Shown here piece after piece: positions 7,757-22,783 of a stretch of 64,000 nt of DNA (positions are counted from its first letter, which is position 1; the number at the start of each line of letters is the position of its first letter). The DNA is from Gammaproteobacteria bacterium (GTDB taxonomy: Bacteria; Pseudomonadota; Gammaproteobacteria; Pseudomonadales; JAUIET01). Location of the stretch: the NCBI GenBank assembly GCA_030431775.1, contig JAUIHW010000002.1, positions 131,087 to 195,086 of the forward strand, given 5' to 3'. A model generated the notes under the pieces. That model was not told the origin of the DNA and did not search any database. It worked only from the letters and a program-made list of their open reading frames with translations. A program made the position numbers and the translations under genes.

Positions 7757-7833
7757 GGCTACGTAGCTCAGTTGGTTAGAGCACAGCATTCATAATGCTG
7801 GGGTCGGTGGTTCAAGTCCACCCGTAGCTACCA
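7757..7833 (+). tRNA. elongator tRNA-Met (anticodon CAT), CCA encoded
   Basis: GGCTACGTAGCTCAGTTGGTTAGAGCACAGCATTCATAATGCTGGGGTCGGTGGTTCAAGTCCACCCGTAGCTACCA. It is very close to the E. coli metT-type sequence. The anticodon loop is TTCATAA. Confidence 0.9.
7789..7833 (+). repeat. attL-type repeat (3' half of the functional tRNA-Met)
   Basis: TTCATAATGCTGGGGTCGGTGGTTCAAGTCCACCCGTAGCTACCA matches 22659-22703 at 41 of 45 positions. Confidence 0.8.
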
Positions 7834-7839
7834 TATCTT

Positions 7840-9009
7840 TCAAAGGGTTACGTACGCGTAGCCCTTTTTGTTTCTGCCAAATGCGTGAGATTTGCGTGAC
7901 CCTCCTTCTGTCTTAGCATTTGGACTCTTCAGTAGCGTTAATGTCGGCGTTGATCCCCGCTCAAAACTCACCTTCTCGGCTGCTTCTATCAGTTCCCCGA
8001 TTTCCACTGCCGAGTAGTGTGTGGTGATTTGCTTGTTGGTGTGACCAAGCAGCACCATACGCGTCTCAACACCAATGCCAGCAGCGCGCAGGCGACGCCC
8101 GAAGGTGTGTTTCAAGTCGTGAACCCTGACCTGAGATAACTCTGTCACGTCCCGCGCCCGGCGCCACGCCTTGTTATTCATCCGCTCCACCGGTTTGTGC
8201 TCACCTTTATACTTATAGGTGAAAACGTGTTCCGGATGAATACCCCGCTGACGATTCACAACGGCTCTCGCGACGGAGTTCAGGACCACCAACCGATCTT
8301 CGCCATTCTTTACAAGTTCACCCGGTATCAGGAATACACTGGCAGACAGCTCTGGAAGAGAAACTTCCCACTCCCAGCGCAAGCCGCAGACTTCCGCTTC
8401 CCGCGTACCGGTATTGACCTTGAACAACGCCATTTCCCGCAGGTGCTTCGGCAATTCGGCAAACAGCCTCTCCTGCTCAACCCACGAAACCGGGTATGGC
8501 TTCCTGGCATCTTTCCAATCCAGCGTACGAATCAGCGGCGGTGTCTCCAGCCATGGATTGCCGCGATCATCGCGCCACAACCTGGCTGCCAACATCAATA
8601 CCCGCCGGACAACGGCCAAATCGCGATTGATCGTATTGGACTTCAGGCCCTCTTTTTTGCGTGAAGCAATAAAAGGCCCCAAGGTATCCTGATGCACCTG
8701 CCGTAACGCCAGATCCCCGATAAAAGGGTCGAGAATCCTCAGCGACTGGGCATCGCGATCTATACTGCGTTTGTGCTCATTCTCCAGAAGATACTTGGTG
8801 GCTGCCTGGCGAAAGGTGTGATCGGGTTTGATGCCGTACACCATTTCCTTTCGAATCTGCTCCAGTCTGAAGGTCAAGTATTGCTCAGCTTCCTGCCGGT
8901 CACCCGTGCCAGTGCTTTCGAAAAGGCGGCCATATCCTCTGATGCGTTTGTCGATTGTCCAGATGCCGTTTTTGCCCCGTTTGACGAGGCCCGGTGTTCT
9001 CTTCGACAT
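7840..9009 (-). CDS. tyrosine site-specific integrase (P4-like)
   Basis: 389 aa. Catalytic signature NTGTREAEVCGLRW (R), HDLKHTFGRRL (HxxR) and LLGHTNKQITTHY (H..Y). Ends 7 nt from the tRNA-Met 3' end. Confidence 0.9.
   Translation of the reverse strand: MSKRTPGLVKRGKNGIWTIDKRIRGYGRLFESTGTGDRQEAEQYLTFRLEQIRKEMVYGIKPDHTFRQAATKYLLENEHKRSIDRDAQSLRILDPFIGDLALRQVHQDTLGPFIASRKKEGLKSNTINRDLAVVRRVLMLAARLWRDDRGNPWLETPPLIRTLDWKDARKPYPVSWVEQERLFAELPKHLREMALFKVNTGTREAEVCGLRWEWEVSLPELSASVFLIPGELVKNGEDRLVVLNSVARAVVNRQRGIHPEHVFTYKYKGEHKPVERMNNKAWRRARDVTELSQVRVHDLKHTFGRRLRAAGIGVETRMVLLGHTNKQITTHYSAVEIGELIEAAEKVSFERGSTPTLTLLKSPNAKTEGGSRKSHAFGRNKKGYAYVTL
7843..7869 (+). terminator. rho-independent terminator of tRNA-Met
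   Basis: Hairpin GGGTTACG-TACG-CGTAGCCC (one G-U pair) followed by TTTTT. It lies inside the last codons of the minus-strand integrase ORF. Confidence 0.55.
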
Positions 9010-9224
9010 AGTGAATTACTCCTATGGTTCGTCGAACACCCACAGCGGGACTTATACTGCTCCACCCAGGCATCCATTTCAAGGCGGTCAAAGGCAATTC
9101 CCTGTTTGCCAATGGGAATCTCTGTCAACTGGTGTCGCACTTCCCGGTTGAAACGGTTCTTGTCCATACCCAGATAGATAGGGGCATCCCGGAGTCGAAT
9201 AAGCCGTGGCAGGATTCCTTGCAT
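8874..9224 (-). CDS. excisionase/AlpA-like small DNA-binding protein (C-terminus uncertain)
   Basis: The N-terminal about 65 aa (LPRLIRLRDAPIYLGMDKNRFNREV...GIAFDRLEMDAWVEQYK) resemble AlpA/Xis HTH proteins. It lies directly upstream of int on the same strand. The last 136 nt overlap int in another frame. Confidence 0.45.
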   Translation of the reverse strand: MQGILPRLIRLRDAPIYLGMDKNRFNREVRHQLTEIPIGKQGIAFDRLEMDAWVEQYKSRCGCSTNHRSNSLCRREHRASSNGAKTASGQSTNASEDMAAFSKALARVTGRKLSNT

Positions 9225-9226
9225 GG

Positions 9227-10096
9227 CTATCTTCCTAAATAAACTGCTGTTATCTGCTCGCGCTCATGACCCAACTCACTGGAGATTTGCAGTCGTGCTT
9301 GCTGATCCAGAACCTTTTGAGCTTTGGTGAGCTGCTGACTCGTTGGCCCACCCTGGTTCGGAGCATCCCAGCCCGTGAGCTCTCTGTAACGGGTCTGGGC
9401 ATAGGTATGTCTCAGCCCGTGCATTCTTGATAGCCCTGCATTGGCCGTCTGGCGTTCGTATACTCTTAGCTGTTGTATGTATTGCCGGTTTTGAGGAATC
9501 AAGGAATGACTGCCTGCCAGTGCTTTGGCCTGTTCAAGTAGCTGTCGCTGGTGCTCTTTACGGATGGGAATAGTTCTTTCTTTACCGCCCTTTGTCCAAC
9601 TGGCTTGAAGCCTGACCTGATCACCCTGATCCGCTTGCCGGGGTTTGATTTTCAGGGCCTCTTCCCGCCGTAAACCAAAGGCGGCTTGAAGTTGCAGGCT
9701 CATGCGAACAAAGGGGTCTGTCACCTTTTCCAGCTTGTCCTGTTCCAGGATTCTCGCCCTTGTGGTTCCAGTGGAACCATAGTGGCGATCCGGGATGCCA
9801 TAAAAATCGTTGGATCGGGCAATAACGTTTTGTTTGTTCACTGCCCTCGCCCACCAGCGCAGATTGCTCATCCGGTTCTTGATGGTGCCGGGCGACAGAT
9901 TCTGTGATTGCCACAGCTTAACCAGGGCTTCCACATGCTTGGGTTTCAAGGAATGTTTACTCATGCGCCTGAAACCCAATTCATGGAGCTGATCAGCGAT
10001 CTGGGTTAACTGATGCTCGCGATTGCTGCGGGTAGCATAGCTGCCTTCCCGGTTATGGCGACACAGTTGTTTCAATTGGTAGTTCAAGTCTCTCAT
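9227..10096 (-). CDS. second tyrosine recombinase (Integrase_1/Phage_integr_3-like)
   Basis: FGLRREEALKI (R), HGLRHTYAQTRY (HxxR) and ELGHEREQITAVYLGR (H..Y). The likely start is the ATG at 10096 (MRDLNYQL...), not the ORF-track start at 10264. Confidence 0.8.
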   Translation of the reverse strand: MRDLNYQLKQLCRHNREGSYATRSNREHQLTQIADQLHELGFRRMSKHSLKPKHVEALVKLWQSQNLSPGTIKNRMSNLRWWARAVNKQNVIARSNDFYGIPDRHYGSTGTTRARILEQDKLEKVTDPFVRMSLQLQAAFGLRREEALKIKPRQADQGDQVRLQASWTKGGKERTIPIRKEHQRQLLEQAKALAGSHSLIPQNRQYIQQLRVYERQTANAGLSRMHGLRHTYAQTRYRELTGWDAPNQGGPTSQQLTKAQKVLDQQARLQISSELGHEREQITAVYLGR

Positions 10097-10833
10097 CAGT
10101 GTAAACCTGTGTTGGTTAGTGTTTCTGATCAGCGCCAAGCCGTAGCTTGGACGGTCTGCACATGGCAGAAAGATCACGGGACACAACGCCCAAAATTGAC
10201 CTGAATATGTCTGGCCATAGACAGCAGGTGTGTTCTCTGAAGAGACCTGGTACCTGCAAACCAATATCCCGGCTATCCGGGTAAGTGGAATTACCTCCTT
10301 TATTTAGATTGAGTTAAGGGATACGAAATAGCTGCTTGTTGCAGCTAGTAACATTGACTTGGAAGGGTCGAGCCAGACGACAGCTATCAACTGTTGCTGA
10401 ATGCCACTGCCGAAAGGCTCGCTAACTGAAGGTGTATCCGGCCTATAACAACTACAAAGCTTGACCGGTACAGATTGAAAAGTACTTTTAAAAGTGCAGA
10501 CCGAAGCCCGCGTAATGAACGATAGGTCTATGCAGATTACAACTACTCTACTCTGCACTGATGCGATCACAGACCTGTTTCGCACTCTACTCCGTTTGCT
10601 TGCGCAAGGTGGAGCTTGCCTTGCCACTTTCCCGCAGTGGCCGCGGATAGAACCGTTACAACAACATTGGGGGCTAGTTTAGGAACAGATCATCCGGGTG
10701 TCATCGTGAAATTCCGGCGCAGACCGTTGCGGTTACTGGTCGGGTCGCCCACGTCACTACCGCTGGCGCTTTGCAGTGACTTGGGCGAATACCTGTATTA
10801 AGTGCGGGTGATTCCAGCTAAACCATTGTTGAT

Positions 10834-13800
10834 TCAATGCTGCGCCAACTCATTGGCAATCATCTCGGCCTGCTTGAGAACCGTTTCGGTAGCCAATAAC
10901 TGCATGTCAGGCGGATAGCCATACTGGCGTAGCAATCGCTTCACAATCACCTTCAATTTGGCGCGCACATTCTCCTTAATCTGCCAGTCGATACTGGCGT
11001 TCTCACGGATTTTTTTCGTCAGCACGACAGCGAGTTCGCGTAAACTCTCCTGTTTCATCAGCTCGCGAGCACTGTCATTATTGGCAACGGCGGTATAAAA
11101 AGCATACTCATAGTCTGACAGGCCCATCTGTTCTGCCTCGACATCGGAGGCGACAATCTCCTTGCTGATTTTTATCAGTTCGTCGATAACCTCGGCGGCC
11201 GTGAGAATTTTGTTGTGATATTTTTTGATAGAGGCTTCAAGCATCTCCATCAGCGATTTACTTTGCACCAGATTGGTTTTCGCTCGCACTCTCAGCTCGT
11301 CATTCAGCAACTTTTTCAATACTTCCAGCGCCACATTCTGGTGTTGATAACCTTTCAGTTCCGCCAGAAACTCATCGGAAAGAATGGAAATATCCGGCTT
11401 CTTGAGACCAGCCGCATCGAAGACATCAATCACCTGCTCTGAAACCAGTGCTTGGTCGATCACCTGGCGAATAGTGGTTTCGATTTCTTCGTTTGTCTTA
11501 CCGCCTCCGGTACTGTCAAACTTGGCGAGCCTGGCTTTCACCGCCTGAAAAAAAGCAATCTCATCTTTAACATCCAGTGCCTGTTCGTGGGGTACGGCAA
11601 TCGCAAAGGCCTGAGAGAGCATTGTCACTTCATTGATATATCGCTTCTTGCCATCCTCCAGCCCCAGAATATGATCTTCCGCGGCCAGTATCAGCGACAG
11701 TTTTTTCGCGGTATCCGCCTCGAAATAGTCTTCATACGCAAAGCCATGAAACATGGCGGACACCACTTCTATTTTCTCCAGCAGCAGTGCGACTGCCTGT
11801 TCCTGCGCCAAAGTAGGGTCGCCCTTACCACCCGCTTCCGAATAAAAAGACAACGCCTCTTTGAGGTCAGATGCAATCCCCAAATAGTCCACCACCAAAC
11901 CACCGGGTTTGTCGCCGTGAACACGGTTTACCCGCGCAATGGCCTGCATCAGATTGTGCCCCTTCATGGGCTTGTCGATATAAAGGGTATGCATAGCAGG
12001 GGCATCAAATCCCGTCAGCCACATATCGCGGACGATAACTAATTTGAGTTCATCGTCATCATTCTTCATTCGTTCGGCCAGCAACTTACGCTGCTGCTTG
12101 GTTGTGTGGTGTCTGGCCAGTTTGGGGCCGTCACTGCTGGAAGCCGTCATCACCACCTTGATCGTGCCCTTGGTCAAATCATCGGAATGCCATTCAGGTT
12201 TAAGTCTAATAATTTCATCATAAAGCTCGGCGGCAATTCGGCGGGACATACTGACAATCATGCCCTTACCCGCAAATACCTCCTGCCGGGCGTCGAAATG
12301 GCTGACGATATCCTGAGCAATATTCCTGATCCGCCGCTCACTGCCAATCAGAGCCTCCATCTGCGTCCACTTCGCCTTGGCTTTCTGGGTTTCCGTCAGT
12401 TCGTCCTGTTCCAGTTCCGCATCTAACGCCTTAACCAGATGCTTACCCTCTTCACTCAACCCCACTTTGGCAAGACGACTCTCGTAGAAGATGCGCACCG
12501 TAGCACCATCCTCAACAGCCTGGGCAATATCATAAATATCCACGTAATTGCCGAATACCGCCGGGGTATTCACATCGGTTTTTTCAATGGGTGTGCCGGT
12601 AAATCCGAGATAAGTCGCCGCAGGAAGCGCATCACGCAGATATTTGGCAAAACCATACACCACCTTCTTGCCAACCACCTGCCCGTTCTCGTCTTTTTCA
12701 TCGACGGTTTTCGCACTAAAGCCATACTGGGTACGGTGCGCCTCGTCGGCAATTACTACGATATTGCGTCGCTCGGAAAGGCACTCGTAGATATTGCCCT
12801 CTTCCGGCTGAAATTTCTGGATGGTGCTAAACACCACACCACCGGAAGCCACCTGTAACAGTGACTTTAACTGTTCCCTGCTTTCCGCCTGCTGCGGTTC
12901 CTGCCGCAACAACTGCTTGCAGGCAGCAAAGGTGTCGAAAAGCTGATCGTCCAGATCATTGCGGTCGGTAATCACCAGAATGGTCGGGTTATCCAGTGCC
13001 AACACAATTTTGCCGGTGTAAAACACCATGGAGAGCGACTTACCGGAACCCTGGGTATGCCAGATAACCCCCGCCTTCTGGTCGCCACTGGGTTGATTCG
13101 TCACATTAGGCAACCCGTAACTGGCGGGGGATTCAGCCACTTTGTTACCTGTTTCAGAACCCGCCGCTCGCAAAGTGGACGTGACAGCGGCGTTTACCGC
13201 GTAATACTGGTGATAGGAGGCAATCTTCTTCACGGTGTTGATGGTGATCTGCCCCGTTTCCGGGTCTTCTTTTTTCGATTTTTCAAACACCATAAAATGA
13301 CGAATCAAATCCAGCAATGTGGCTTTGTTCAGCATACCGTTAATCAGGGTTTCCATCTGACTGACCAGGTGCGATGCTTCGCTTTTGCCATCCGCTGTTT
13401 TCCAGGCCATAAAACGGGAGTAACCCGCTGACAGCGAACCCGCCCTTGCTTCCAAGCCATCAGAAACCACCAGCAGGGCGTTATAGGCAAACAGGCTGGG
13501 GATTGTGGATTTATAAGTTGCCAACTGTTGAAACGCCGATTTGATAGTGGCGTTTTCATCCGTCGCGTTTTTTAGCTCAATCACCACCAGCGGCAAACCA
13601 TTGATGAACAGCACCAGGTCAGGCCGCTTGTTCACATGGTTTTCAATCACCGTAAACTGGTTAGCCACCACAAACTCGTTGTTTTCTGGTCGTTCAAAAT
13701 CCACCAGCCAGACATACTCGCCACGCTCGTCACCATCTTGATGGCGACTGACTTTCACCCCTTCCGTCAGCAGGCGGTGAAACGCTTCATTATTGGCCAG

Positions 13801-14046
13801 CAAATCCGGCGACTGAATACGGGCAACTTCTTTTGATGCTTCAGCAATCAATGTATCAGGCAGATGGGGGTTAATACGGCGAATGGCTTGTGTGAGCCGT
13901 TCTGTGAGCAACACTTCATCATAGCGGCTACGCTCTGGATGCTCAGAGTCCGGGGCGATATCCGGCGCATGAATATAGTCATAGCCAAGCCGCTCAAACA
14001 GCTTGATGGCAAACTCTTCAATGGCGGATTCGGTTAAACGGCTCAT
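10834..14046 (-). CDS. hsdR: type I restriction enzyme, R subunit
   Basis: 1070 aa. Walker A HTQGSGKSLSMVF, DEAH box VIADEAHRTQ, helicase motif VI QAIARVNR, and an N-terminal nuclease region. Confidence 0.95.
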   Translation of the reverse strand: MSRLTESAIEEFAIKLFERLGYDYIHAPDIAPDSEHPERSRYDEVLLTERLTQAIRRINPHLPDTLIAEASKEVARIQSPDLLANNEAFHRLLTEGVKVSRHQDGDERGEYVWLVDFERPENNEFVVANQFTVIENHVNKRPDLVLFINGLPLVVIELKNATDENATIKSAFQQLATYKSTIPSLFAYNALLVVSDGLEARAGSLSAGYSRFMAWKTADGKSEASHLVSQMETLINGMLNKATLLDLIRHFMVFEKSKKEDPETGQITINTVKKIASYHQYYAVNAAVTSTLRAAGSETGNKVAESPASYGLPNVTNQPSGDQKAGVIWHTQGSGKSLSMVFYTGKIVLALDNPTILVITDRNDLDDQLFDTFAACKQLLRQEPQQAESREQLKSLLQVASGGVVFSTIQKFQPEEGNIYECLSERRNIVVIADEAHRTQYGFSAKTVDEKDENGQVVGKKVVYGFAKYLRDALPAATYLGFTGTPIEKTDVNTPAVFGNYVDIYDIAQAVEDGATVRIFYESRLAKVGLSEEGKHLVKALDAELEQDELTETQKAKAKWTQMEALIGSERRIRNIAQDIVSHFDARQEVFAGKGMIVSMSRRIAAELYDEIIRLKPEWHSDDLTKGTIKVVMTASSSDGPKLARHHTTKQQRKLLAERMKNDDDELKLVIVRDMWLTGFDAPAMHTLYIDKPMKGHNLMQAIARVNRVHGDKPGGLVVDYLGIASDLKEALSFYSEAGGKGDPTLAQEQAVALLLEKIEVVSAMFHGFAYEDYFEADTAKKLSLILAAEDHILGLEDGKKRYINEVTMLSQAFAIAVPHEQALDVKDEIAFFQAVKARLAKFDSTGGGKTNEEIETTIRQVIDQALVSEQVIDVFDAAGLKKPDISILSDEFLAELKGYQHQNVALEVLKKLLNDELRVRAKTNLVQSKSLMEMLEASIKKYHNKILTAAEVIDELIKISKEIVASDVEAEQMGLSDYEYAFYTAVANNDSARELMKQESLRELAVVLTKKIRENASIDWQIKENVRAKLKVIVKRLLRQYGYPPDMQLLATETVLKQAEMIANELAQH

Positions 14047-14723
14047 TCTTCAGCATCCCCTGCCAACTCGTCACCAGACTCCATAAATAATTTGTACTCA
14101 AGTTCATAGGCTTGGTAGTCCAAACCATATAAAACCTCACTTGCCACAAAAGAGTACACACCCATTTGGAAATCTCCAAAAGACTGATCCCAGGATTCGT
14201 TAAAATCTTCAGCATCGGCATAAATAATTTTTTCTCCTACCGCGACTTCACTCTCCTTCGGAACAGCCATATCTTTGCGTTCTTCAAAAGAACGGATCAG
14301 AAACACAGCCACAACTACCGTGCTATCAATTAAAAAGTCTCGAGTGAGCAAGTCAATACTGCTGTTTCTATCTCTAAGCTCGTCCATTGATCTGCCGTGA
14401 GATGTGGGGCTTATACCATTTCGTAGTGTGCCGATCTGCTGGCCAATATTTGCCAGTGAGCCTGAAATAGTTCGCACCATATCCTCATTTGGATAGCCCA
14501 GGGCGGTAAAAGCCGCTTTTATCACTCCATTGATTGTTGGGCTTGATCCCAACTCAACCTCCTTAACACTACAAATCTCCTTACCGATGGATTCAAGTAA
14601 AGCCTTCGCATTTTCAAGGGAATGACTGAAGTCAGATTCAAGATGGCCTTCCATCCTGTCGATGTAAATACCCAGGTCTTTCCAGCGCCCATATTGCTCA
14701 ATCGTCTTCCGTAACTTTTCCAT
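14043..14723 (-). CDS. Abi_C-like (abortive-infection C-terminal domain-like) protein embedded in the R-M operon
   Basis: 226 aa. IGQQIGTLRNGISPTSHGRS resembles the RN...HG core of the Abi_C family as I recall it. The stop overlaps the hsdR start by 4 nt. Confidence 0.5.
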   Translation of the reverse strand: MEKLRKTIEQYGRWKDLGIYIDRMEGHLESDFSHSLENAKALLESIGKEICSVKEVELGSSPTINGVIKAAFTALGYPNEDMVRTISGSLANIGQQIGTLRNGISPTSHGRSMDELRDRNSSIDLLTRDFLIDSTVVVAVFLIRSFEERKDMAVPKESEVAVGEKIIYADAEDFNESWDQSFGDFQMGVYSFVASEVLYGLDYQAYELEYKLFMESGDELAGDAEE

Positions 14724-14728
14724 TAAGA

Positions 14729-15553
14729 TTAACCTTGACTGCGCTTACCGCTCAAGTTCGCAATAGCAGCCTGAAGCACCTGCCAACTTATTTTAGCCGT
14801 ATGTATATCAGGATTGAATTTCTGAACCGCCTGCTGGCGAGGGTGAATATAGTTTCTGAAATCTTTCAACGAATGACTGTATTTCTTTACATCCAGGGAA
14901 AGCAGCCCGACTTCATGGGCCACGTTAATCAGTGAGTCTAACGTCCAATCCTGAAAATACCTCACCTTACCTTCGCTGTCTTTCGGTGCTGCATTAGCCT
15001 GGTTAAAAAACTGGGGGTTCTTTGATGCAGCGTCCTGCAACAAACCTTCGAGGGTACTGCCACAGAGAAACACAACCGCCAATGACGCTCTCGCTTCCAG
15101 TGCTTTGCCGATCTCATCAATACGTTGTTCCAGAATGGGCTGCAACTGCATATCAATATTTAGCCTTGCCCAGTCAATTCGGGCAAAGTCCTGTTGGAGA
15201 AACTCGTTTTCAGTGGATGACTGGCGAGCGTTATCGTCGTTATTTCCTAATAGCCGGCGTGTAATTTCCGATGCCTTACTTTGGTCTTCACCAGCAACCT
15301 GATCGACCGCACAAGCGTATTCCAATAGTGCATCAAGAACGGTGCCAACCAACTCATCAGGTTCGACTTCCCAAAACGCCCTGAGTCGTTTCATTTTGGA
15401 ATTACCATTGAACCGGTATTTCTGGTTATCAATATCGACCCCATGTTCCCTAAAAAACTCTGCATAGGTTCTATCGGTAAAATCCAGTACATAGCCACCG
15501 CGATCAAACAATCGCTCAAAAATCACTTTCTCGTGGGCTTTAAGCTGGGACAT
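14729..15553 (-). CDS. hypothetical protein embedded in the R-M operon (possible HEPN-like C-terminal helical domain)
   Basis: The ATG at 15553 (MSQLKAHEK...) is 1 nt after the hsdS stop. The C-terminus reads LKDFRNYIHPRQQ, an R-N-x-x-H arrangement that is one residue shorter than the canonical HEPN Rx4-6H. The function assignment is weak. Confidence 0.55.
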   Translation of the reverse strand: MSQLKAHEKVIFERLFDRGGYVLDFTDRTYAEFFREHGVDIDNQKYRFNGNSKMKRLRAFWEVEPDELVGTVLDALLEYACAVDQVAGEDQSKASEITRRLLGNNDDNARQSSTENEFLQQDFARIDWARLNIDMQLQPILEQRIDEIGKALEARASLAVVFLCGSTLEGLLQDAASKNPQFFNQANAAPKDSEGKVRYFQDWTLDSLINVAHEVGLLSLDVKKYSHSLKDFRNYIHPRQQAVQKFNPDIHTAKISWQVLQAAIANLSGKRSQG

Positions 15554-15554
15554 T

Positions 15555-16790
15555 TCAGGCCACTCTAACCGCGCCGCTGATGAGTTTCGGTAGCAGCATG
15601 TCACGAAGACTTGTCAGCTGTTTAATTTGACTGGAATTAAAAATCTGCTTTTCAATAATCGGCTCCATATGGGAATTCATCTCTTGCAGCTCTTTAGCCG
15701 ATGGCACAAGCACCACGGCCTCATCGAGATCACCACGCTTGATATGCCCCATTGTGGTTGCATGGGCCTGCGAAATTGCAATGAATTCTTGCAGGTGGTG
15801 CCTGCACCACATCAGATAAAACCATTTAGGAAACTCATCCGACGTCACTTTGAACAAATGCTGATTTAACACACAGGTTTCACCATCCCAAATTTTCACC
15901 ATAAGCGAGGCAGACCATGAAAAAATCACATCACCTGCTTTAACAATGTATTTTTCGTCCACTTTGCTGCTGGCAAAATCTGATGACTCTGAAATACCGG
16001 ACTGCAGCTCCCTGATTTTCAATACAGGTAGCTTTTCAACGTCGTTTTCAGGTGGATATTTTTGACAGGCTAAGCCATTCAAAAAATTTGCAATGCTGCT
16101 TAAAGGCCTTTCCTCCCAATCCTCCTGAGCTTCTTCCACAAACCACTGGCGGAACAGGGTTCCAGCGATGGCTTCGAGGGTTTTGTTTTGGCGATTGAGT
16201 AGGTCGATTTTGTCGTCAAGGCTGGAGAGAACAGAGGCAATGGCTTTTTGCTCCTCTATACTGGCGGGTAACACCACTGGCAAGTCTCTCTGTGCGGTAA
16301 TTCCTACATAAGCACGGGTCGATCCACTATCGCCGTGATTAATCAAGGTTTCTTGAAATTCAGGAGAATCGAAATAGTATTTTAGATATAGATTTGAAAG
16401 TTTTTCGTAGTCCTTGATCCGATAATACGTCACTTGGGGAGTCAACATGATAAAGTCGGTTTCGATTCTCCCAACTATCGCAGTTCTACCTAAGCTGGCC
16501 TTATGGGTTAGCAATACATCGCCAGGAATAGAAAACCCTTTTCTTAAAGAGTCTGCTTGTTCTCTCGAAATAAACTTGCAGTTATGCAAATCAATTTTCC
16601 CGTCGTTTATATCCGTTGCCATTACAAAGGGAATACCTGAATCTACAAAATCATCTCCTTTAGGATGAATTCCTCCGTGATTCCCATCTAGTGGCTTTTC
16701 AATTATTCCATGCGCTATGAGGTCAGCTACTGATACGCAATCCCAATCAATTGGAATATCACCCACATCCGTTGACTGAAACTCACTCAC
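15555..16790 (-). CDS. hsdS: type I R-M specificity subunit
   Basis: 411 aa. Two target-recognition halves are separated by conserved helices (LPASIEEQKAIASVLSSLDDKIDLLNRQNKTLEAI, and the C-terminal LRDMLLPKLISG). Overlaps hsdM by 4 nt. Confidence 0.9.
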   Translation of the reverse strand: MSEFQSTDVGDIPIDWDCVSVADLIAHGIIEKPLDGNHGGIHPKGDDFVDSGIPFVMATDINDGKIDLHNCKFISREQADSLRKGFSIPGDVLLTHKASLGRTAIVGRIETDFIMLTPQVTYYRIKDYEKLSNLYLKYYFDSPEFQETLINHGDSGSTRAYVGITAQRDLPVVLPASIEEQKAIASVLSSLDDKIDLLNRQNKTLEAIAGTLFRQWFVEEAQEDWEERPLSSIANFLNGLACQKYPPENDVEKLPVLKIRELQSGISESSDFASSKVDEKYIVKAGDVIFSWSASLMVKIWDGETCVLNQHLFKVTSDEFPKWFYLMWCRHHLQEFIAISQAHATTMGHIKRGDLDEAVVLVPSAKELQEMNSHMEPIIEKQIFNSSQIKQLTSLRDMLLPKLISGAVRVA

Positions 16791-18322
16791 ACTTTCACCC
16801 GCGCCAAACTCTGTTCAATCGCCTTATTGAGCCTTTCCTCTTCCTTTAGCTGCTCATTAAACTCAGCTTTCAATGCGGCAAATCGCTCGGCAAAGTCAAA
16901 ATCATCCTCTTCTTCCGCCAACCCCACATAGCGGCCCGGTGTGAGCACATAGTCCAGTTCGGCAACGCGCTCTAGGGATACGGAGGCACAGAAGCCTTTG
17001 ACATCCTCATAGCCGTTTTCGCCAGTACGCCAGTTGTGGTAAATACCAGCTATCTGTTGGATGTCATCGTGGGAGAGTTCACGGGTACGACGGTTAATAA
17101 GGTGGCCAAGATTGCGGGCATCAATAAACAGAATTTCGCCTTTGCGAGGGTGGCCATTGTTTCTGGATCGGTTCATAAACCAGAGCGCGGCCGGTATCTG
17201 GGTATTCAAAAACAGTTTGGCAGGCAGGTTGACGATGCAGTCGATCAGGTTGCCATCGGCCACCAGGCTTTTGCGGATATCGCCTTCACCAGAGGTTTTG
17301 CTCGTAAGTGCGCCTTTGGCCAGTACCACACCTGCCATGCCTGTGGGTGCAAGGTGATAAATAAAATGCTGCAACCAGGCGAAGTTGGCATTGCCTGGCG
17401 GCGGTGTGCCGTATTGCCAGCGGGCATCGCCACGTAGCTGTTCACCACTCCAGTCGCTGACGTTGAAGGGTGGGTTGGCGATAATGTAGTCGGCCTTCAA
17501 ATCCTTGTGGGCATCATTAAGGAAGGAGCCTTCGTTATTCCATTTGACCTGTGAACTGTCGATGCCGCGAATGGCCAGATTCATTTTTGCCAGCCGCCAG
17601 GTGGTCTGGTTACTCTCTTGCCCGTAGATAGAAATATCGTTGATGCGGCCCTGGTGCTCCTCGACAAACTTTTCTGATTGCACAAACATGCCGCCACTGC
17701 CACAGCAGGGGTCGAATACCCGGCCTTTGTAAGGCTCCAGCATATTGACCAGCAATTCCACAATACTGCGTGGGGTATAGAACTGGCCACCCTGTTTGCC
17801 TTCCGCCAGGGCGAATTCGCCAAGGAAGTATTCAAACACATGGCCGAGCACATCGGCACTGCGGGCTTTGGCGTCACCCAGTGCGATATTGCTAACCAGA
17901 TCAATCAGGCCACCCAGTGCGGTTGGGTCGAGGTTTTGCTTGGCGTAAACCTTGGGTAGTACGCCTTTGAGGGAGTTGTTCTCCTTCTCAATGGCATCCA
18001 TCGCCGCATCCACATGAATACCGATATCAGGCTGTTTGGCCAGCGTTAGCAGGTACGACCAGCGCGCATCCTGCGGCACGAAGAAGACGCTCTCAGCCTT
18101 GTATTCATCCTTGTCCTCCGGGTCGGCTCCGGCATATTCACCGTCGCCTGTTTGCAGTTTCTGGAACAATTCTTCAAAAGCATCGGAAATGTATTTGAGG
18201 AAAATCAGCCCCAACGCCACATGTTTGTATTCGGCGGCATCAATGTTTTTCCGCAGCTTGTCCGCTGACTTCCACAGCTGTTTTTCCAGTGGTTCTTCTT
18301 TTGTTTGGCTTTTTCTGGCCAT
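16787..18322 (-). CDS. hsdM: type I R-M N6-adenine DNA methyltransferase subunit
   Basis: 511 aa. SAM motif [12 protein letters not shown], catalytic IIANPPFN, and an HsdM N-terminal domain ([32 protein letters not shown]). Confidence 0.95.
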
Positions 18323-18350
18323 CTTTGTTACTTCCTTAAATACAATTCAG

Positions 18351-20273
18351 TTACGTGGCGCTCAAAGGCAAAGGGAGAGAGGGTGACGAAAGTACTGATT
18401 TCAACAAGTCGTCGTCTTCAATATCGGCATAACGATTCAGCTTTTCTCGTAACTTGAATAACCGCTTCTCTGCCGTCGATATCAGTACAGAAAAAGTCAC
18501 TGCTGTGACATTTCCGCAGTCTCCAATTTTTTGGCCCGGTTCTGTTTTAGGCTCAATTTTTTCCCCAACCACGAAAGCGTTCACAAAAGGCTTCGAGCCT
18601 ATAAGATCGCTATAGGCGATATCCTGAACATACCCACCTGCCTGATTTATTTCATCTCTGCCAATGGAATAACCACCACGCTTTACTTCTATCAACAAAA
18701 CACTTTTTGTCCGTTCAAGGCCATTTTCATCAACGCTGTCTAATGCTTGCGCTCCGAGGGTGGACTCCTTAAGCACAACAATATCCGGTCGTTTCTTCGC
18801 ATTGAGAAAGGCTGCCTGATCAATCTTTTGTCCGAATACCTGCGCGATGGTTTTTACAAGCCCCACATTGGAAGAGGAATATTCACTGGATTCGTATTCT
18901 GGGCCGAACAACCAGCGAGCTTTAAGCACCAATGGGTGAATGGTGTGTAATTCGTCTGCATCTTTATTGCCGGAGAATCTGCGCAAGGCTTCGATGACTT
19001 TCAATCTCACATCAATCTCGGAAAGGACAACGAGTGCATCCTGGGCCGTCCATTCGGCAAGCAACTCATCAAGGGAATCAACGTCGTCAATACTGATGGA
19101 TGTCAGTTTGCTTAACAGGCTTTGGCCTGAGCGAGATTTCTCAAGATTGATAGCCGCTTTTACTGCTAGCTGAAGGGTTTTTGGGTCAAGGTCAGGGTTT
19201 TCTTCCAACAAGCCATCAACAAACCTGGATACTTCCAAGGCCTCAACCGGCGACATGGTCTGCAGCTCTTGCTTATTGTGATAGAGCACATCTTCCTTAG
19301 CCTCGCGAATCTCGTCTTTCAATAATTCACGCCGCTTTTCACTGATATATTGAGCAAGCTCTTCTGCCACTTGCTGTATTAAGGTGCTGCCCGGCTTGAA
19401 GCCTGACCAATCTTCCAGAATCTCTTCTCTCAGCCCATCCGTGTTAACGACAACTACGAACCTTTTTCCAAAGGCCCTTCGTCCGTCAGCCAGCGAGATA
19501 CCGCCCAATGTCCAGCTATGTTCCCCAACCCGCCGTCCACCTACCCAAATAGCTACACCCTGAAATATGTTGTCTCTTCTACCCTGTTTTGAGTCAACCA
19601 ACGTAACGTGCAATTTGATCCCGGCCACTGTTAGTTCAGCCTGATCGACCACACCTGGGTGCTCATGCAGAGGAATGCTTTTTCCGTTAACTGAAATTGA
19701 AAAATCCGGCGTTGAAATAAACCGGGCGGCCAGTGTTTCCGCGATTTTCTCGTCAGAAACAAAGTGTTGACTAACAGCCACCGACAGCCTGGTGCCATGA
19801 CCTGTTTTTTGGCGCGTGTCTTTTGAAGTGACGTTCAATGGCTCTTCACCAACGGCGACGGATACCTGGAAAATGTTGCAACTTCCATCCCGCCAGGTTT
19901 CAACCTGATATTCATCCCCAAAACAAAGCAATCCATGTCGCCCTACACCATTTCGCCCAAAGGCTTTTCTCTTTAATCCCTTTCTATCCGCCGGGAAGGA
20001 AACATTGGGGCCTTGATGAGCAAGTCGGTTATAGCGCAGCATCATCCACCTTTCGCGAAAATGCTGTTCAGTCATTCCTACGCCATCGTCTTCAATAACC
20101 ATGACACCACCATTCGAATCAGGGACAACAATATCCACCTTGCTGGCTCCAGCATCATAGGCGTTAGCCACAAGTTCAGTAAGTGCAATGTCGGGCCTAT
20201 GGACTATTGCTCCAAGGTCACGCCGGAGGAAGTCCTTCTCGTAGGTGGTTTCAAATAAGTCCTGGTTTCTCAT
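18351..20273 (-). CDS. GHKL (MORC/Hsp90-type, HATPase_c_3-like) ATPase with a C-terminal PD-(D/E)xK nuclease-like domain
   Basis: Bergerat motifs ELVANAYDA (ExxxNxxDA), DDGVGM (DxGxG), GRNGVG (GxxGxG) and GHGTR. A long helical middle region follows. The C-terminus has RPDIVVL...(about 30 aa)...LLIEVKRGG, which is a PD...ExK arrangement. Confidence 0.75.
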   Translation of the reverse strand: MRNQDLFETTYEKDFLRRDLGAIVHRPDIALTELVANAYDAGASKVDIVVPDSNGGVMVIEDDGVGMTEQHFRERWMMLRYNRLAHQGPNVSFPADRKGLKRKAFGRNGVGRHGLLCFGDEYQVETWRDGSCNIFQVSVAVGEEPLNVTSKDTRQKTGHGTRLSVAVSQHFVSDEKIAETLAARFISTPDFSISVNGKSIPLHEHPGVVDQAELTVAGIKLHVTLVDSKQGRRDNIFQGVAIWVGGRRVGEHSWTLGGISLADGRRAFGKRFVVVVNTDGLREEILEDWSGFKPGSTLIQQVAEELAQYISEKRRELLKDEIREAKEDVLYHNKQELQTMSPVEALEVSRFVDGLLEENPDLDPKTLQLAVKAAINLEKSRSGQSLLSKLTSISIDDVDSLDELLAEWTAQDALVVLSEIDVRLKVIEALRRFSGNKDADELHTIHPLVLKARWLFGPEYESSEYSSSNVGLVKTIAQVFGQKIDQAAFLNAKKRPDIVVLKESTLGAQALDSVDENGLERTKSVLLIEVKRGGYSIGRDEINQAGGYVQDIAYSDLIGSKPFVNAFVVGEKIEPKTEPGQKIGDCGNVTAVTFSVLISTAEKRLFKLREKLNRYADIEDDDLLKSVLSSPSLPLPLSAT

Positions 20274-20313
20274 GTAAATCCTTTTCCCTGTTCAATCTCA
20301 GCGTTAGTTGTCC

Positions 20314-20958
20314 TTATTCCGAGACGGTCAATATGACGCTCAAATTATCAAGCCCCTGTTTTTCAATTCGACTAACTTCTCTCTTTAGCTTTTCTTCGAT
20401 AGATTCAGCGTCCCGAAACCAGTTATCGTCTGCATATGCCCAAAAGCCATCGCTACAAAGTAATAATCGTTCGCCTGTATATTCGAAGCTGTTTACTTCC
20501 AGCGAGCCTGTATCAGTAATCTTTACCCAGCCTGCTACTTTGTTGCGTTGTTCAGCATATTCAGTTTCTGTTAGTTCGCCGGTTTTAAGCCGCTGAAAAG
20601 CTGGAACATGATCAATAGTCAGCCATTTAATGCCTTGATCGCCAACCTTGCCAACTCTGCAGTCACCGGCATGGATCGTATAGAGCCTGCCACCATGAAT
20701 GAGCGCAGCCGCAACACAAAATGAGTAATCTCCGCAATATTTACCCTTCAAATTTGCTGCTGCCCTGGCGAAGCCATCGCGCAGGTTTTGTTCGATATCT
20801 GTAACTTCGCCCTTCAGTGAGAGATTTTGCGAACACACCTCCCGGCAGAAGGCACGAACCAGTTCTCCACACTCGGGTTGTTGCTGCACCCCATCACATA
20901 CGATGTAGAGTGGGGAACCATATATATACTGGCTTGAGTTACGTGGTCGGTATTCCAT
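20314..20958 (-). CDS. divergent short PP2C-family (SpoIIE-like) Ser/Thr phosphatase
   Basis: 214 aa. IVCDGV (DG motif), HAGDCRV (compare GDSR), LLLCSDGFW and GLDNLSVI (terminal DN). The N-terminal RxxNED-like region reads RPRNSSQ. Confidence 0.6.
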   Translation of the reverse strand: MEYRPRNSSQYIYGSPLYIVCDGVQQQPECGELVRAFCREVCSQNLSLKGEVTDIEQNLRDGFARAAANLKGKYCGDYSFCVAAALIHGGRLYTIHAGDCRVGKVGDQGIKWLTIDHVPAFQRLKTGELTETEYAEQRNKVAGWVKITDTGSLEVNSFEYTGERLLLCSDGFWAYADDNWFRDAESIEEKLKREVSRIEKQGLDNLSVILTVSE

Positions 20959-20998
20959 TCCCTGGTGCTACCAGAAAGGCTCATAAACACTTTTACCT

Positions 20999-21700
20999 TC
21001 ACTGGCTATCAACTCTACTCAGCTGCCCAAACCTCTCTTTCACCAATCCCAAACGATCAGGCGATTCGCTGGGTATTGAGCTTGCCAGCAGGTAATCAAA
21101 ATCCTTGTTCTTCAAAAATCTGCCTATTTCCCGTGCAATGAAACTGCGCAATTCTTCAGGGCTAGATGTAATCTCATCTACAAGCGCATCTCTGCCATTC
21201 ACCAGGGTCACAATATCCTCTGCATCCCTGCTCGCCAACATGCTGTCGCCGCGGCCGTTAAAAGCTTCAAGCTTGGTTGCCAACAGGTAATTCGCCGAAA
21301 CAATTTTTATCGTCGGGCCATTGGGGAGGTTATAAGGCACTGCGTGCTGCCGCCCTTCCTTGAACCACCGATTGCTGAATCCGATAACGTCTTCACTATC
21401 GGGCATTACATCAACCTTGATACCTCTGCATATATAACGGCAAATTGGTTCGTTTTCTTCGTCCGGCTCGTGCTGTTCTTTAAACCCTCTGTCTTTCAGC
21501 CGTTCAATGAGTTTGTGATATTCCACATAACCAGCAACTGAGACGATGAAATCAACATCCTTTGTACTGCGGATATCCATGGGCTGAGCATCATCCAGAT
21601 GAAGCGAAATAGTAGTCCCGCCTACAAAAGCAATTTCACCCAACAACTCCTCCCCAAGGGCTTCGGCAATATCTCGGAGCAAGTCCTCATGTTCACTCAT
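20999..21700 (-). CDS. nucleotidyltransferase-fold protein (AbiEii-like toxin candidate)
   Basis: The start MSEHEDLL at 21700 is 1 nt after the upstream stop. FVGGTTISLHLD...RSTKDVDFIV fits the Pol-beta NTase pattern GG..(n)..D.D. Confidence 0.6.
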   Translation of the reverse strand: MSEHEDLLRDIAEALGEELLGEIAFVGGTTISLHLDDAQPMDIRSTKDVDFIVSVAGYVEYHKLIERLKDRGFKEQHEPDEENEPICRYICRGIKVDVMPDSEDVIGFSNRWFKEGRQHAVPYNLPNGPTIKIVSANYLLATKLEAFNGRGDSMLASRDAEDIVTLVNGRDALVDEITSSPEELRSFIAREIGRFLKNKDFDYLLASSIPSESPDRLGLVKERFGQLSRVDSQ

Positions 21701-21701
21701 G

Positions 21702-22367
21702 TTACTTGCCCTCCAGAGTTTTCGACAAACGCTCTCGTGCGATTTGCTGACTTCGTGAATCACCTATTCGAAAAACATCGATAACAGCCAGCAGGCCATA
21801 TAGTTCTGTGTCTATCAACGCTGCCTTGGCTGCAGATTTATAGAGAGGTTCAACGGACATGCCCCTAACATTACCCAACGGGTCAGGCCATACTGGAGGC
21901 ATATCACTGGAACTGGCAATATCGCCTTTAAAAGATGGCGCTGCATGAGCTGTGGGAATTCCCCGGGCAATAGCACCAACTTTGGCACTGAATACTACAG
22001 GCGCACCGAATTGTATAAATTTCCCCAAAGATGGACGATTGACCCGTATATCATTGCCAATCTTTATCAAAAGCCCGGATTCAATTGCTCGCCCGACAGC
22101 TTTATTGGTTTCGCTCAAGGATATGAACAATTCAGAGGCGAGTTGACGATAGTTCCATTTGGCCTGTATTTTTGTTTCACGGCTCAGAAACTCTTCTATT
22201 ACCTCTAGCTCTCTTTCTGCTTCTCCATTACTGCCAGAGTCAACTTCCCATACAATGCCCTCTAGCTCGCGCATTGATGACCGTGGCGAGTAAGGGCGAC
22301 TGTCCGCTGAGCGAAGCTCCACCGACAGTATTTTGCAGCATACGAGTAAGTCCTGAGGTTTAAGCAT
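21702..22367 (-). CDS. putative wHTH DNA-binding partner (AbiEi-like antitoxin role)
   Basis: 221 aa. N-terminal MLKPQDLLVCCKIL and a central WNYRQLASELFISLSETNKAVGRAIESGLL HTH-like segment. Position and coupling with the NTase gene support the call. Confidence 0.4.
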   Translation of the reverse strand: MLKPQDLLVCCKILSVELRSADSRPYSPRSSMRELEGIVWEVDSGSNGEAERELEVIEEFLSRETKIQAKWNYRQLASELFISLSETNKAVGRAIESGLLIKIGNDIRVNRPSLGKFIQFGAPVVFSAKVGAIARGIPTAHAAPSFKGDIASSSDMPPVWPDPLGNVRGMSVEPLYKSAAKAALIDTELYGLLAVIDVFRIGDSRSQQIARERLSKTLEGK

Positions 22368-22403
22368 TATCGGCGCATTGTTTCCTGTTTCCGAAATGCG
22401 AAC

Positions 22404-22434
22404 ATTTTAGAACATTCCCCGCTTGGTTTGTCAA
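22404..22434 (-). promoter_or_regulatory. candidate sigma70 promoter of the nine-gene array
   Basis: The minus strand reads TTGACA (22434-22429), a 19-nt spacer, then TAAAAT (22409-22404), about 35 nt upstream of the ATG at 22367. The spacer is longer than optimal. Confidence 0.3.
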
Positions 22435-22658
22435 GACTCGATCATTTTCAAGGGGACTATTTCAGATTTTATTTGGCGCATTTCACCTTTTGCGACAAAT
22501 AAAGTGGCGCATTCTTAGAATTACGCCAGAAAACCCGAAAACTACTTGCGTGAGATTTGCGTGACTTGTTGTGAAAAGTTGTGCTCTGTACTGCAATTTT
22601 ACTGTGGGTGTCGAAATTAAAGTTAATAAAATCAATTAGTTAAAAATTACCAGCCAGT

Positions 22659-22703
22659 TTCATAATGCTGGGGTCACTGGTTCAAGTCCAGTCGTAGCTA
22701 CCA
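22659..22703 (+). repeat. attR-type repeat (displaced 3' half of tRNA-Met; not a complete tRNA)
   Basis: TTCATAATGCTGGGGTCACTGGTTCAAGTCCAGTCGTAGCTACCA. There is no D-arm or 5' acceptor upstream. The 4 mismatches are two compensated T-stem base pairs. Confidence 0.8.
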
Positions 22704-22783
22704 TTTTCAACGGCTTTCCGAATAGCTTCAAATTCCACAGCTGTTAGTGGTGTGAACAGTTCAATATTTTTTGCCTGTATTGC

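Follow-up and report, generated by a model that had tools for sequence, protein, structure and literature searches.

Two independent defence units, neighbours by chance in a tRNA-Met island, very probably contribute to the interval 18351-20958 of the 64,000-nucleotide stretch of DNA analysed here (the window). Its two genes, one for a 640-aa GHKL ATPase-nuclease and one for a PP2C-like protein, do not together make up a novel defence system. The first unit (18351-20273, minus strand) would be a nuclease of the paraMORC3 / VcSduA kind, one protein that provides defence unaided. The second would be the PDC-M21 cassette at 20314-22367, in which A encodes a 221-aa protein, B a nucleotidyltransferase toxin of the AbiEii type and C the PP2C-like protein (Table 1). 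A phosphatase-gated ATPase-nuclease system, as proposed in a first-pass annotation of this DNA, would have been a notable discovery, but the evidence says otherwise; with the gene grouping of the island corrected, the wrong pair is not cloned.

Table 1. Features of the window discussed in the text
Feature	Position	Strand	Evidence
tRNA-Met island, ~14.9 kb	7757..22704	.	attL 7789-7834, attR 22659-22704, integrases 7840-9009 and 9227-10264
Type I R-M operon	10834..18322	-	hsdM 16787-18322, hsdS 15555-16790, hsdR 10834-14046
291-aa ORF and Abi_C-domain ORF within the R-M operon	14043-14723 (Abi_C-domain ORF)	-	ORF and Pfam searches
Single-gene GHKL ATPase-nuclease, 640 aa, paraMORC3 / VcSduA-like architecture	18351..20273	-	ORF, homologues, AF2 model pLDDT 82.6
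C-terminal PD-(D/E)xK nuclease domain, residues 435-616	18426..18971	-	Invariant residues, domain model
All-helical linker, residues 297-434	18972..19385	-	DSSP on structure model: helices 297-434
Beta-rich middle domain (transducer / S5-like), residues 181-296	19386..19733	-	Foldseek
GHKL (Bergerat) ATPase domain, residues 1-180	19734..20273	-	Pfam HATPase_c_3, motifs I-IV
PP2C-like phosphatase gene, PDC-M21C, frameshifted as assembled	20314..20984	-	PADLOC PDC-M21C 3e-21; PP2C_2
(TA)4 run, +2-nt insertion relative to intact homologues, frameshift site	20921..20928	-	tblastn frame switch; DNA compared with L086
AbiEii-like nucleotidyltransferase, PDC-M21B, 233 aa from ATG 21700	20999..21700	-	PADLOC M21B 8e-72; Pfam AbiEii
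221-aa putative antitoxin/regulator, PDC-M21A	21702..22367	-	PADLOC M21A 1e-44

Setting of the interval

The ORFs of 640 and 214 aa on which the first-pass annotation was built are both present on the minus strand, with the motifs and spacings that it had reported: 40 nt separate the PP2C ORF from the GHKL gene, 28 nt the GHKL gene from hsdM, and 40 nt the AbiEii-like gene from the PP2C ORF as called. Its domain calls were also right, in that a GHKL ATPase is fused to a PD-(D/E)xK-type nuclease and the smaller ORF encodes a PP2C-family protein. The tRNA-borne defence island that it had described is likewise found, with R-M genes as neighbours: the tRNA-Met gene occupies 7757-7833, its 3' half is repeated directly over 46 nt at the two att sites, and an integrase gene lies just inside the first of them.

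The gene order of the type I R-M system is common to the window and a related island (L086), and PP2C, GHKL and hsdM form one co-oriented array in the window and in L086-88. A promoter and terminator scan of 18200-22750 returned no more sites than were found in shuffled sequence, and no promoter-like or intergenic terminator-like site on the minus strand. Because the array is co-oriented and free of such sites, PP2C, GHKL and hsdM are likely to be co-transcribed in the window, the scan itself being uninformative on operon structure.

Architecture of the 640-aa protein

The motifs ELVANAYDA, DDGVGM, GRNGVG, GHGT, RPDIVVL and LLIEVKRGG were all found in the 640-aa ORF. The ATPase motifs are E33-x3-N37-x2-D40 (I), D62xGxG66 (II), G106xNGxG111 (III) and G160-T161 (IV), and those of the nuclease are E441 (I), D497 of the RPD triplet (II), E529-x-K531 (III) and Q544-x3-Y548 (IV). 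E33/N37/D40, D62/G64/G66 and G106/N108/G109/G111 were invariant among 100 homologues with 44-88% identity, as were E441, D497, E529/K531 and Q544/Y548 in the same set; G160/T161 of motif IV were invariant in a 16-sequence alignment and at least 90% conserved among the 100 homologues. Pfam HATPase_c_3 matched the protein at 5e-17 (62.6 bits against a cut-off of 25). These motifs are far beyond chance.

PDB sequence matches of the ATPase domain were the N-terminal domains of MutL and Hsp90. When the full structure model was used as the query, Foldseek aligned the ~400 N-terminal residues with MORC2/3/4 (TM on target about 0.46-0.49) and, at E 1e-13 to 1e-11, with HtpG/TRAP1/Hsp90 over their N and M domains; the E-values of both groups together ran from 1e-13 to 1e-10. 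Since this search was dominated by Hsp90, TRAP1 and MORC and was uninformative on the nuclease, residues 425-640 were modelled separately, which gave an alpha-beta-beta-beta-alpha-beta core (pLDDT 81.9). The best Foldseek matches of this domain were the PD-(D/E)xK enzymes MspJI, AspBHI and EndoMS/NucS, all of them weak (best E 6e-3) and none at E<=0.001. PDB sequence searches with a full-length profile, a C-terminal profile and the C-terminal fragment of P0009 returned GHKL matches or nothing, and no Shedu chain.

The resemblance in sequence and fold to the N-terminal and middle domains of MutL and Hsp90 could be that of a housekeeping ATPase, with a role in repair or as a chaperone and none in defence. 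However, we give this reading almost no credence: the distribution of the protein is sporadic (408 species genomes of about 185,000 species), it is encoded in an integrase-bearing tRNA island, its homologues have R-M or defence genes as neighbours, the fused nuclease has an invariant active site, and no MutL model gives it a score anywhere near the cut-off. The earlier idea that it is an ATP-driven nuclease effector is upheld. Judging by how GHKL proteins behave, the ATPase would dimerise upon ATP binding and form a clamp, licensing the nuclease to cut invading DNA. If the results obtained with VcSduA can be carried over, the ATPase glutamate and the nuclease lysine would both be needed, and protection would be direct, not abortive.

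Homologues of the GHKL-nuclease and their neighbours

Full-length homologues of ~640-650 aa are numerous (more than 1,900 clusters at 90% identity). A search of a representative library with the C-terminal profile returned 621 clusters at E<=1e-3; the best 150 of these were all ~620-690-aa proteins of the same architecture or fragments, with no alternative architecture among them. The 80 homologue loci that we compared span Gamma- and Betaproteobacteria, Bacteroidota, Firmicutes, Acidobacteriota and others. Among 149 immediate neighbours at 79 homologue loci, the commonest Pfam family occurred at most four times, and the recurrent neighbours were R-M or defence genes. Elsewhere the neighbours were type III, MmeI, GmrSD, MADS or BREX-like genes, or nothing related to defence. 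The neighbourhood check proposed with the two-gene model was thus borne out for varied restriction-modification and defence neighbours but not for PP2C adjacency: tblastn with the PP2C, M21A and M21B of the window gave no match (E<1e-5) at any of the 80 loci.

The surroundings of hsdM raise a different question, namely whether the GHKL-nuclease lacks autonomy and serves the adjacent type I R-M system as an accessory component, for example as an additional ATP-dependent cutter or as a back-up that draws on the methylation state of the host. Apart from its position immediately upstream of hsdM in the window, the gene lies between hsdS and hsdR at five loci (L014, L018, L020, L022 and L023), where the R-M system is 50-60% identical to that of the window, and directly upstream of hsdM at L026 and L080. 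Iyer et al. predicted that paraMORCs act with R-M systems (PMC2292703), and the presence of hsdM within 10 kb at 17 of the 80 loci makes a functional tie to type I R-M possible. However, the other 63 loci have no hsdM nearby, and their neighbours are varied or not defence-related; such a pattern is usual for cargo that has inserted into R-M operons or defence islands, and VcSduA works alone in E. coli (PMC12137116). We regard an accessory role as unlikely, and favour a nuclease that would act as a unit of its own.

The PP2C-like gene and the PDC-M21 trio

To judge from profile matches and gene order, the PP2C-like gene belongs, as its third member, to the toxin-antitoxin-like cassette that begins directly upstream. 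The A, B and C genes of the window are adjacent and co-oriented, and match the component HMMs of PDC-M21 in the right order. PDC-M21 is a candidate system of the PADLOC database, with component C frameshifted in the window; no published work on it was found by literature search. M21B matches Pfam AbiEii (1e-9; 39 bits against a cut-off of 22.5) and carries the motif R44-x-T46-K-D48-V-D50, in which T46/D48/D50 are invariant in 116 homologues. M21A matches only the PADLOC M21A model and, below threshold, a wHTH, with no AbiEi Pfam match; it lies directly upstream of B in all other genomes sampled. The order A-B-C was kept throughout the contexts that we sampled from four B-homologue clusters, and also at 8 metagenome loci. 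The metagenome loci came from a scan with a PP2C alignment, which yielded 80 loci, mostly of generic PP2C proteins, 8 of them with the M21 trio.

The partners of the trio bear directly on the model in which the PP2C protein, as a phosphatase or pseudo-phosphatase, gates the GHKL-nuclease within a dedicated two-gene system. The two genes are adjacent and co-oriented in the window, and they are also neighbours in L086-88. However, as described above, the PP2C had no match at any of the 80 GHKL loci, and a GHKL homologue was found at none of the 80 PP2C-pattern loci (mostly generic PP2C, with the trio at 8). The PP2C travels with M21A and M21B in at least six other contexts without a GHKL gene. 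The trio occurs without that gene in Porticoccaceae, Shewanella, Aeromonas and Pseudomonas and at the 8 metagenome loci, and also in 98%-identical relatives, beside a different R-M system. Conversely, two GHKL relatives with 78% identity, one beside Fic and DISARM-like genes and the other solitary among metabolic genes, are both without PP2C. Together with the artefactual origin of the pseudo-phosphatase motif (see below), these observations leave the phosphatase-gated two-gene model highly improbable and already largely refuted. Nor does its claim to novelty survive, since the PP2C and the two genes upstream correspond to PADLOC PDC-M21C/B/A, and the GHKL-nuclease has the paraMORC3 architecture, which is also that of VcSduA.

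The PP2C-like gene matches Pfam PP2C_2 (26.1 bits against a cut-off of 24) and, below the cut-off, the NCBIfam Stp1/IreP PP2C model (3e-14). N11/D13, D30-G31, G106-D107, D178-G179 and D212 are invariant in 7 members of the M21C family, in which intact homologues are 222-228 aa long. In the 214-aa ORF as called (20314..20958), the first motif had been read as RPRNSSQ, and was considered degenerate. We reject the pseudo-phosphatase motif as a frameshift artefact. When P0121, an intact homologue, was aligned to the window by tblastn, residues 1-30 matched in one frame (90% identity) and residues 26-228 in another (92%). The first motif is read as RPRNSSQ because the 2-nt insertion shifts the frame, so that the N-terminal stretch is translated out of frame in the ORF as called. 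The true N-terminus is at ATG 20984 and reads MSLSGSTREWNTDHV..., with the N-x-D of RxxNED kept; intact relatives read REWNTDH at this position. A second disrupted PP2C, suspected in a Pseudomonas locus (L096), proved to be intact and merely missing from the gene table.

Either the phosphatase arm is off in this organism or the assembly is wrong. An error of assembly or sequencing, in a gene that is intact in the organism, is a serious possibility as the source of the frameshift but falls short of being probable. The 2-nt change lies in a short dinucleotide repeat, both frames are otherwise open with the identity to P0121 given above, and relatives with 70-98% identity are intact; on the other hand, dinucleotide repeats do mutate by slippage, and it is plausible that a gene which activates a toxin should be lost.

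A possible phospho-switch

The AbiE / MenAT systems (type IV, now type VII toxin-antitoxin) offer a possible role for component C. M21B is likewise a DUF1814/AbiEii-type nucleotidyltransferase with R-x-T-K-D-x-D, and its T46 is equivalent to the motif Thr that is the auto-phosphorylated site in MenT1, or the corresponding Ser in MenT3. In AbiEii/MenT toxins, the antitoxin induces an auto-phosphorylation that silences the toxin (PMC11375011), and AbiEii activity is restored in vitro by a PP2C-type phosphatase (bioRxiv 10.64898/2026.01.19.700257). In contrast to AbiE / MenAT, PDC-M21 has three genes, with its own PP2C, and its A protein lacks the AbiEi match. No paper naming both AbiEii and PP2C was found in the literature collection searched.

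By analogy with these systems, we tentatively suggest that M21C could be a phosphatase, encoded in the operon itself, that re-arms an AbiE/MenAT-type (type VII) toxin-antitoxin defence. M21A would induce auto-phosphorylation of M21B on the invariant T46, silencing the toxin, and M21C would take the phosphate off M21B when infection is sensed, so that the toxin is re-armed. The invariant T46/D48/D50 in B and the invariant metal-binding Asp positions of PP2C in C form the basis of this proposal. If it is true, the question of how the phosphorylated toxin is reactivated in vivo, open in the AbiE/MenT literature, would find a natural answer in a system of three components, and this combination of AbiE-like genes with a PP2C would give a clean genetic handle on the re-activation of phosphorylation-silenced nucleotidyltransferase toxins.

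Comparison with known GHKL and Shedu proteins

The ~200 N-terminal residues of the 640-aa protein are similar to those of BbrUII/HgiDII-type restriction enzymes (NF050001 3.5e-26; PADLOC REase_II PDLC03419 8e-13), but the NF050001 score is 91.9 bits against a cut-off of 550, the match being confined to the N-terminal domain and the rest of the protein unlike. The nearest relations in architecture are instead found among the paraMORCs and the Shedu nucleases. As defined by Iyer, Abhiman & Aravind (2008), paraMORC3 combines GHKL and S5 domains with a restriction endonuclease (RE) fold bearing E-D-ExK and RecB-like affinities; it is common in proteobacteria and bacteroidetes, and often stand-alone or near R-M genes (PMC2292703). 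The E-D-ExK signature, an S5-type middle domain, a sporadic spread and the lack of a fixed neighbour are common to paraMORC3 and the family described here. paraMORC3 was defined from comparative genomics alone, and the 640-aa protein is matched to it by these defining features, not by alignment.

VcSduA of Vibrio cholerae, a type I-D Shedu, is a stand-alone anti-phage nuclease (Adams et al., Nat Microbiol 2025; PMC12137116). Its single gene is sufficient in E. coli, E27A and K557A lose defence, and protection is direct, not abortive (PMC12137116). Like the 640-aa protein, it is a single polypeptide of similar size with GHKL motifs I-IV at the N-terminus, a clamp-like middle and a C-terminal PD-(D/E)xK domain, and it is found in defence islands; the likeness is one of architecture, not of sequence comparison. 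There are also differences. The motif I Glu and the nuclease Lys are 496-500 residues apart in the 640-aa family and 530 apart in VcSduA (E27-K557), and none of 100 homologues of the 640-aa protein has the 530 spacing. The nuclease of VcSduA is reported as DUF4263, whereas Pfam PF14082 (DUF4263) matched none of 36 members of the family, ten more distant relatives included, even at E up to 1-10. NCBIfam Shedu did not match the 640-aa protein, and no Shedu structure was among the top 50 Foldseek matches of the nuclease domain, themselves weak. The PADLOC SduA HMM matched 4 of 26 relatives (3e-5 to 0.017), over HMM positions 201-260 alone; this partial match corresponds to residues ~399-461, the end of the linker and nuclease motif I, and the window protein itself had no match.

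The clade as a whole is recognised neither as Shedu nor as any other defence system by the current Pfam, NCBIfam and PADLOC v2.0.0 models. On a weaker reading, it may stand apart from DUF4263 Shedu and have a functional link to a single lineage of type I R-M operons. The B. cereus Shedu protein has E204/D249/E264-K266/Q295, the same order of E, D, ExK and Q as in the 640-aa protein with other spacing, and the fold of Shedu is EndoMS-like, EndoMS/NucS being among the top Foldseek matches of the nuclease domain described here. With the family described here, a large, well-conserved clade, annotated only as 'ATP-binding protein', would be added to the GHKL-nuclease (paraMORC3 / VcSduA-like) class of defence proteins.

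Organization of the gene array

The coordinates, spacings, motifs and island setting described in the first-pass annotation hold: ORF calling shows that both ORFs of the proposed pair exist on the minus strand, and the tRNA, the 46-nt repeat and the recombinase genes were found. An AbiEii-like ORF and a 221-aa ORF lie upstream on the same strand; downstream of the 640-aa ORF, hsdM and hsdS come first, then two small ORFs and finally hsdR (ORF call; Pfam). The enclosing island measures about 14.9 kb. The original observation stands for the most part; neither the proposed pairing nor its claimed novelty was borne out. The region holds one more protein of an already known class of single-gene defence, adjoined by the frameshifted third gene of PDC-M21, a named yet uncharacterised candidate system.

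Positions of the features of the gene array and its island
Feature	Position	Strand	Remark
640-aa ORF	18351..20273	minus	ORF call
214-aa ORF (PP2C-like, as called)	20314..20958	minus	ORF call
AbiEii-like ORF	20999..21763 as called; true start ATG 21700	minus	ORF call; 233 aa from true start
221-aa ORF	21702..22367	minus	ORF call
tRNA-Met	7757-7833
46-nt direct repeat of tRNA-Met 3' half (island boundaries)	7789-7834 and 22659-22704		91% identical
Two tyrosine-recombinase genes	7840-9009 and 9227-10264
19-nt direct repeat	7882-7900 and 22547-22565		perfect
291-aa and 226-aa ORFs	14043-15604	minus	between hsdS and hsdR
AAA_14/DUF4143 ATPase	22784-24016	minus	PDC-S01 (1.7e-53)

The 19-nt repeat lies just inside each island end. 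Between hsdS and hsdR are a 291-aa ORF without a Pfam match and a 226-aa Abi_C-domain protein; in a Flavobacterium locus, a homologue of the former (47% identity over 179 aa) sits between the GHKL gene and hsdM (loci noted: L038, 6240-6776; L028, 3986-4333). The AAA_14/DUF4143 ATPase, which matches a PADLOC candidate, is just beyond attR and therefore outside the island.

The PP2C-like gene belongs to PDC-M21

The PP2C-like gene had been proposed as the partner of the GHKL-nuclease gene. With PADLOC it maps to a named candidate component, PDC-M21C (3e-21), and the two genes upstream match components B (8e-72) and A (1e-44). Close homologues are rare (6 found): in L086-88 the homologue lies in the same island as the window's, and in L089/90 A-B-C is followed by an hsdR remnant, without a GHKL gene. 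Each context sampled from the B side consists of a 221-260-aa gene, a 233-234-aa NTase and a 223-226-aa third gene, overlapping or nearly abutting, and the GHKL gene is absent from every one of them. These contexts are mutually unrelated (Shewanella baltica, Aeromonas, Pseudomonas, and 98%-identical relatives beside a different R-M system), and the third gene is a homologue of the window's PP2C-like protein, at 33% identity (E 1e-32 and 3e-34) or 25% identity (E 2e-7). When metagenomes were scanned with an alignment of the PP2C proteins, 80 loci came back, with A and B directly upstream in eight and a GHKL homologue in none. Conversely, tblastn searches that took PP2C, M21A and M21B of the window as queries found no match in 80 GHKL-homologue loci, with flanks of up to 10 kb. 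Adjacency to PP2C is thus not conserved, the neighbours of the GHKL gene being varied R-M and defence genes, and the PP2C gene is not the partner of the 640-aa protein. Trio loci were recorded at window 20314-22367 and in L091-L097, L098-L104, L110, L111, L128, L169, L173 and L181.

A frameshift in the PP2C-like gene

The minus strand of the window reads ...AGT ATA TAT AT GGT TCC..., and intact homologues read AGT ATA TAT GGT TCC. Two frames of the window are needed to align P0121, an intact homologue of 228 aa: its residues 1-30 match at 90% and residues 26-228 at 92% identity. The switch falls at a (TA)4 run (20921-20928) that carries a 2-nt expansion, within a gene that spans 20314-20984 (minus), with its true start at ATG 20984 and the true N-terminus MSLSGSTREWNTDHVTQASIY. 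Relatives at 70-98% identity are intact. The supposedly degenerate motif RPRNSSQ was rejected, as it is REWNTDH read out of frame. Because the metal-binding positions (N-x-D, DG, GD, DG, D(N)) are invariant across the family, its members are probably catalytically active and not pseudo-phosphatases. The gene is broken in this assembly; slippage may have inactivated a gene that activates a toxin, or the frameshift may be a fault of the assembly.

AbiEii/MenT toxins are silenced via antitoxin-induced auto-phosphorylation of Thr/Ser in an R-x-[TS]-K-D motif (PMC11375011), and AbiEii activity is restored in vitro by a PP2C-type phosphatase, the authors regarding what phosphatases do in vivo as an open question (bioRxiv 10.64898/2026.01.19.700257). 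In M21B, T46 of RxTKDVD is kept in 116/116 homologues examined, and the best curated match of M21C is the Stp1/IreP PP2C family (3.4e-14, below cut-off). Given these four points, the most economical reading is that the PP2C-like gene may encode the trio's own re-arming phosphatase, and the trio fits an AbiE-type phospho-switch carrying its own phosphatase. A literature search found no paper joining AbiEii and PP2C, and none on PDC-M21.

Neighbours of the GHKL-nuclease gene

De novo clustering of neighbours yielded no conserved partner of the GHKL gene. Among 149 immediate neighbours scanned, the commonest family occurred in at most four (Pfam) or five (PADLOC); ResIII, GmrSD, N6_N4_Mtase, HSDR_N, Methylase_S, SLFN_AlbA_2, Eco57I, MmeI and mad2/mad5 recurred. 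In L081, the contig of the 78%-identical relative P0004, a SoFic-like Fic protein lies on one side and a DISARM- or BREX-like cluster (PLD-SNF2 helicase, 1305-aa Eco57I-type methylase, SMC-like ATPase) on the other. Another 78%-identical relative is solitary, surrounded by metabolic genes. A functional link with type I R-M, which we hold as a minority reading, draws on recurrent insertion into such operons: hsdM lies within 10 kb of the GHKL gene in 17 of the 80 loci, the gene stands between hsdS and hsdR in five (L014, L018, L020, L022, L023), and it is directly upstream of hsdM in L026, L080 and the window (array at 16787-20273). Type I R-M operons with the gene embedded or abutting occur repeatedly across phyla; in several, HsdM and HsdR are 50-60% identical to the window's, which may reflect either co-transfer or functional coupling.

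Domains of the 640-aa protein

Pfam detects HATPase_c_3 in the 640-aa protein (5e-17). Against NCBIfam and PADLOC, similarity is confined to the N-terminus, where MutL and type II restriction enzymes with a GHKL domain are matched far below the family cut-offs (BbrUII/HgiDII, 91.9 bits against 550; REase_II, 8e-13, N-terminal). Full-length homologues of about 640-650 aa form 1,921 clusters at E<=1e-3, named solely 'ATP-binding protein', and 408 species genomes carry one. Across 100 homologues of 44-88% identity, the invariant residues are E33/N37/D40, D62/G64/G66 and G106/N108/G109/G111 in GHKL motifs I-III, and E441, D497 (RPD), E529-x-K531 and Q544-x3-Y548 in the nuclease; T161 of motif IV is invariant in a 16-sequence alignment and at least 90% conserved among the 100.

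In the AlphaFold2 model (pLDDT 82.6), the first ~400 residues overlay the N-terminal and middle domains of HtpG/TRAP1/Hsp90 and MORC2/3/4. Residues 425-640, modelled separately (pLDDT 81.9), form a core of alpha-beta-beta-beta-alpha-beta topology in which D497 and ExK occupy neighbouring strands. The top PDB matches are the PD-(D/E)xK enzymes MspJI, AspBHI and EndoMS/NucS, and because none is stronger than E = 6e-3, the main grounds for the nuclease call are the set of invariant motifs and the topology. By analogy with other GHKL proteins and with the model for VcSduA, the GHKL domains would dimerise in an ATP-dependent manner and so close around DNA a clamp built of the middle and helical regions; closure would license the C-terminal nuclease.

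Comparison with known systems

The GHKL-nuclease architecture had been taken as unrecognised, but it is already in the literature. ParaMORC3 (Iyer, Abhiman and Aravind 2008, PMC2292703), mainly of proteobacteria and bacteroidetes and often encoded by stand-alone genes, combines GHKL and S5 domains with a conserved RE-fold domain at the C-terminus that bears the signature E-D-ExK; compared by description, it agrees with the 640-aa family in each feature. Gu et al. listed as type 1D those Shedu homologues that join a HATPase_c_3 fold to a middle domain like that of Hsp90/MORC. As in the Shedu nuclease, the motifs of the 640-aa family run E, D, ExK, Q, and the EndoMS-like matches agree too. However, Glu-to-Lys spacing is 496-500 in the family against 530 between the mutated VcSduA residues E27 and K557, none of 36 members matches Pfam DUF4263, and the PADLOC SduA model matches 4 of 26, in a stretch confined to the end of the linker and nuclease motif I. 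Because these results limit the membership claim, we file the protein by its features under the paraMORC3/GHKL-nuclease kind, and take strict DUF4263-Shedu membership as a possibility. Plasmids of Rhizobium, Agrobacterium, Azospirillum, Sinorhizobium and Streptomyces carry full-length relatives (H1-H14, 22-32% identity), almost always annotated just as 'ATP-binding protein', which might bridge the 640-aa clade and DUF4263-type GHKL Shedu proteins. VcSduA, the type I-D Shedu of Vibrio cholerae, has the same GHKL-plus-nuclease layout, a likeness of architecture and not of aligned sequence. As a single gene it protects E. coli and V. cholerae, at all MOIs, and E27A (ATPase) or K557A (nuclease) each abolishes protection (Adams et al. 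2025, PMC12137116). Thus, the architecture was described with paraMORC3 and validated by experiment with VcSduA.
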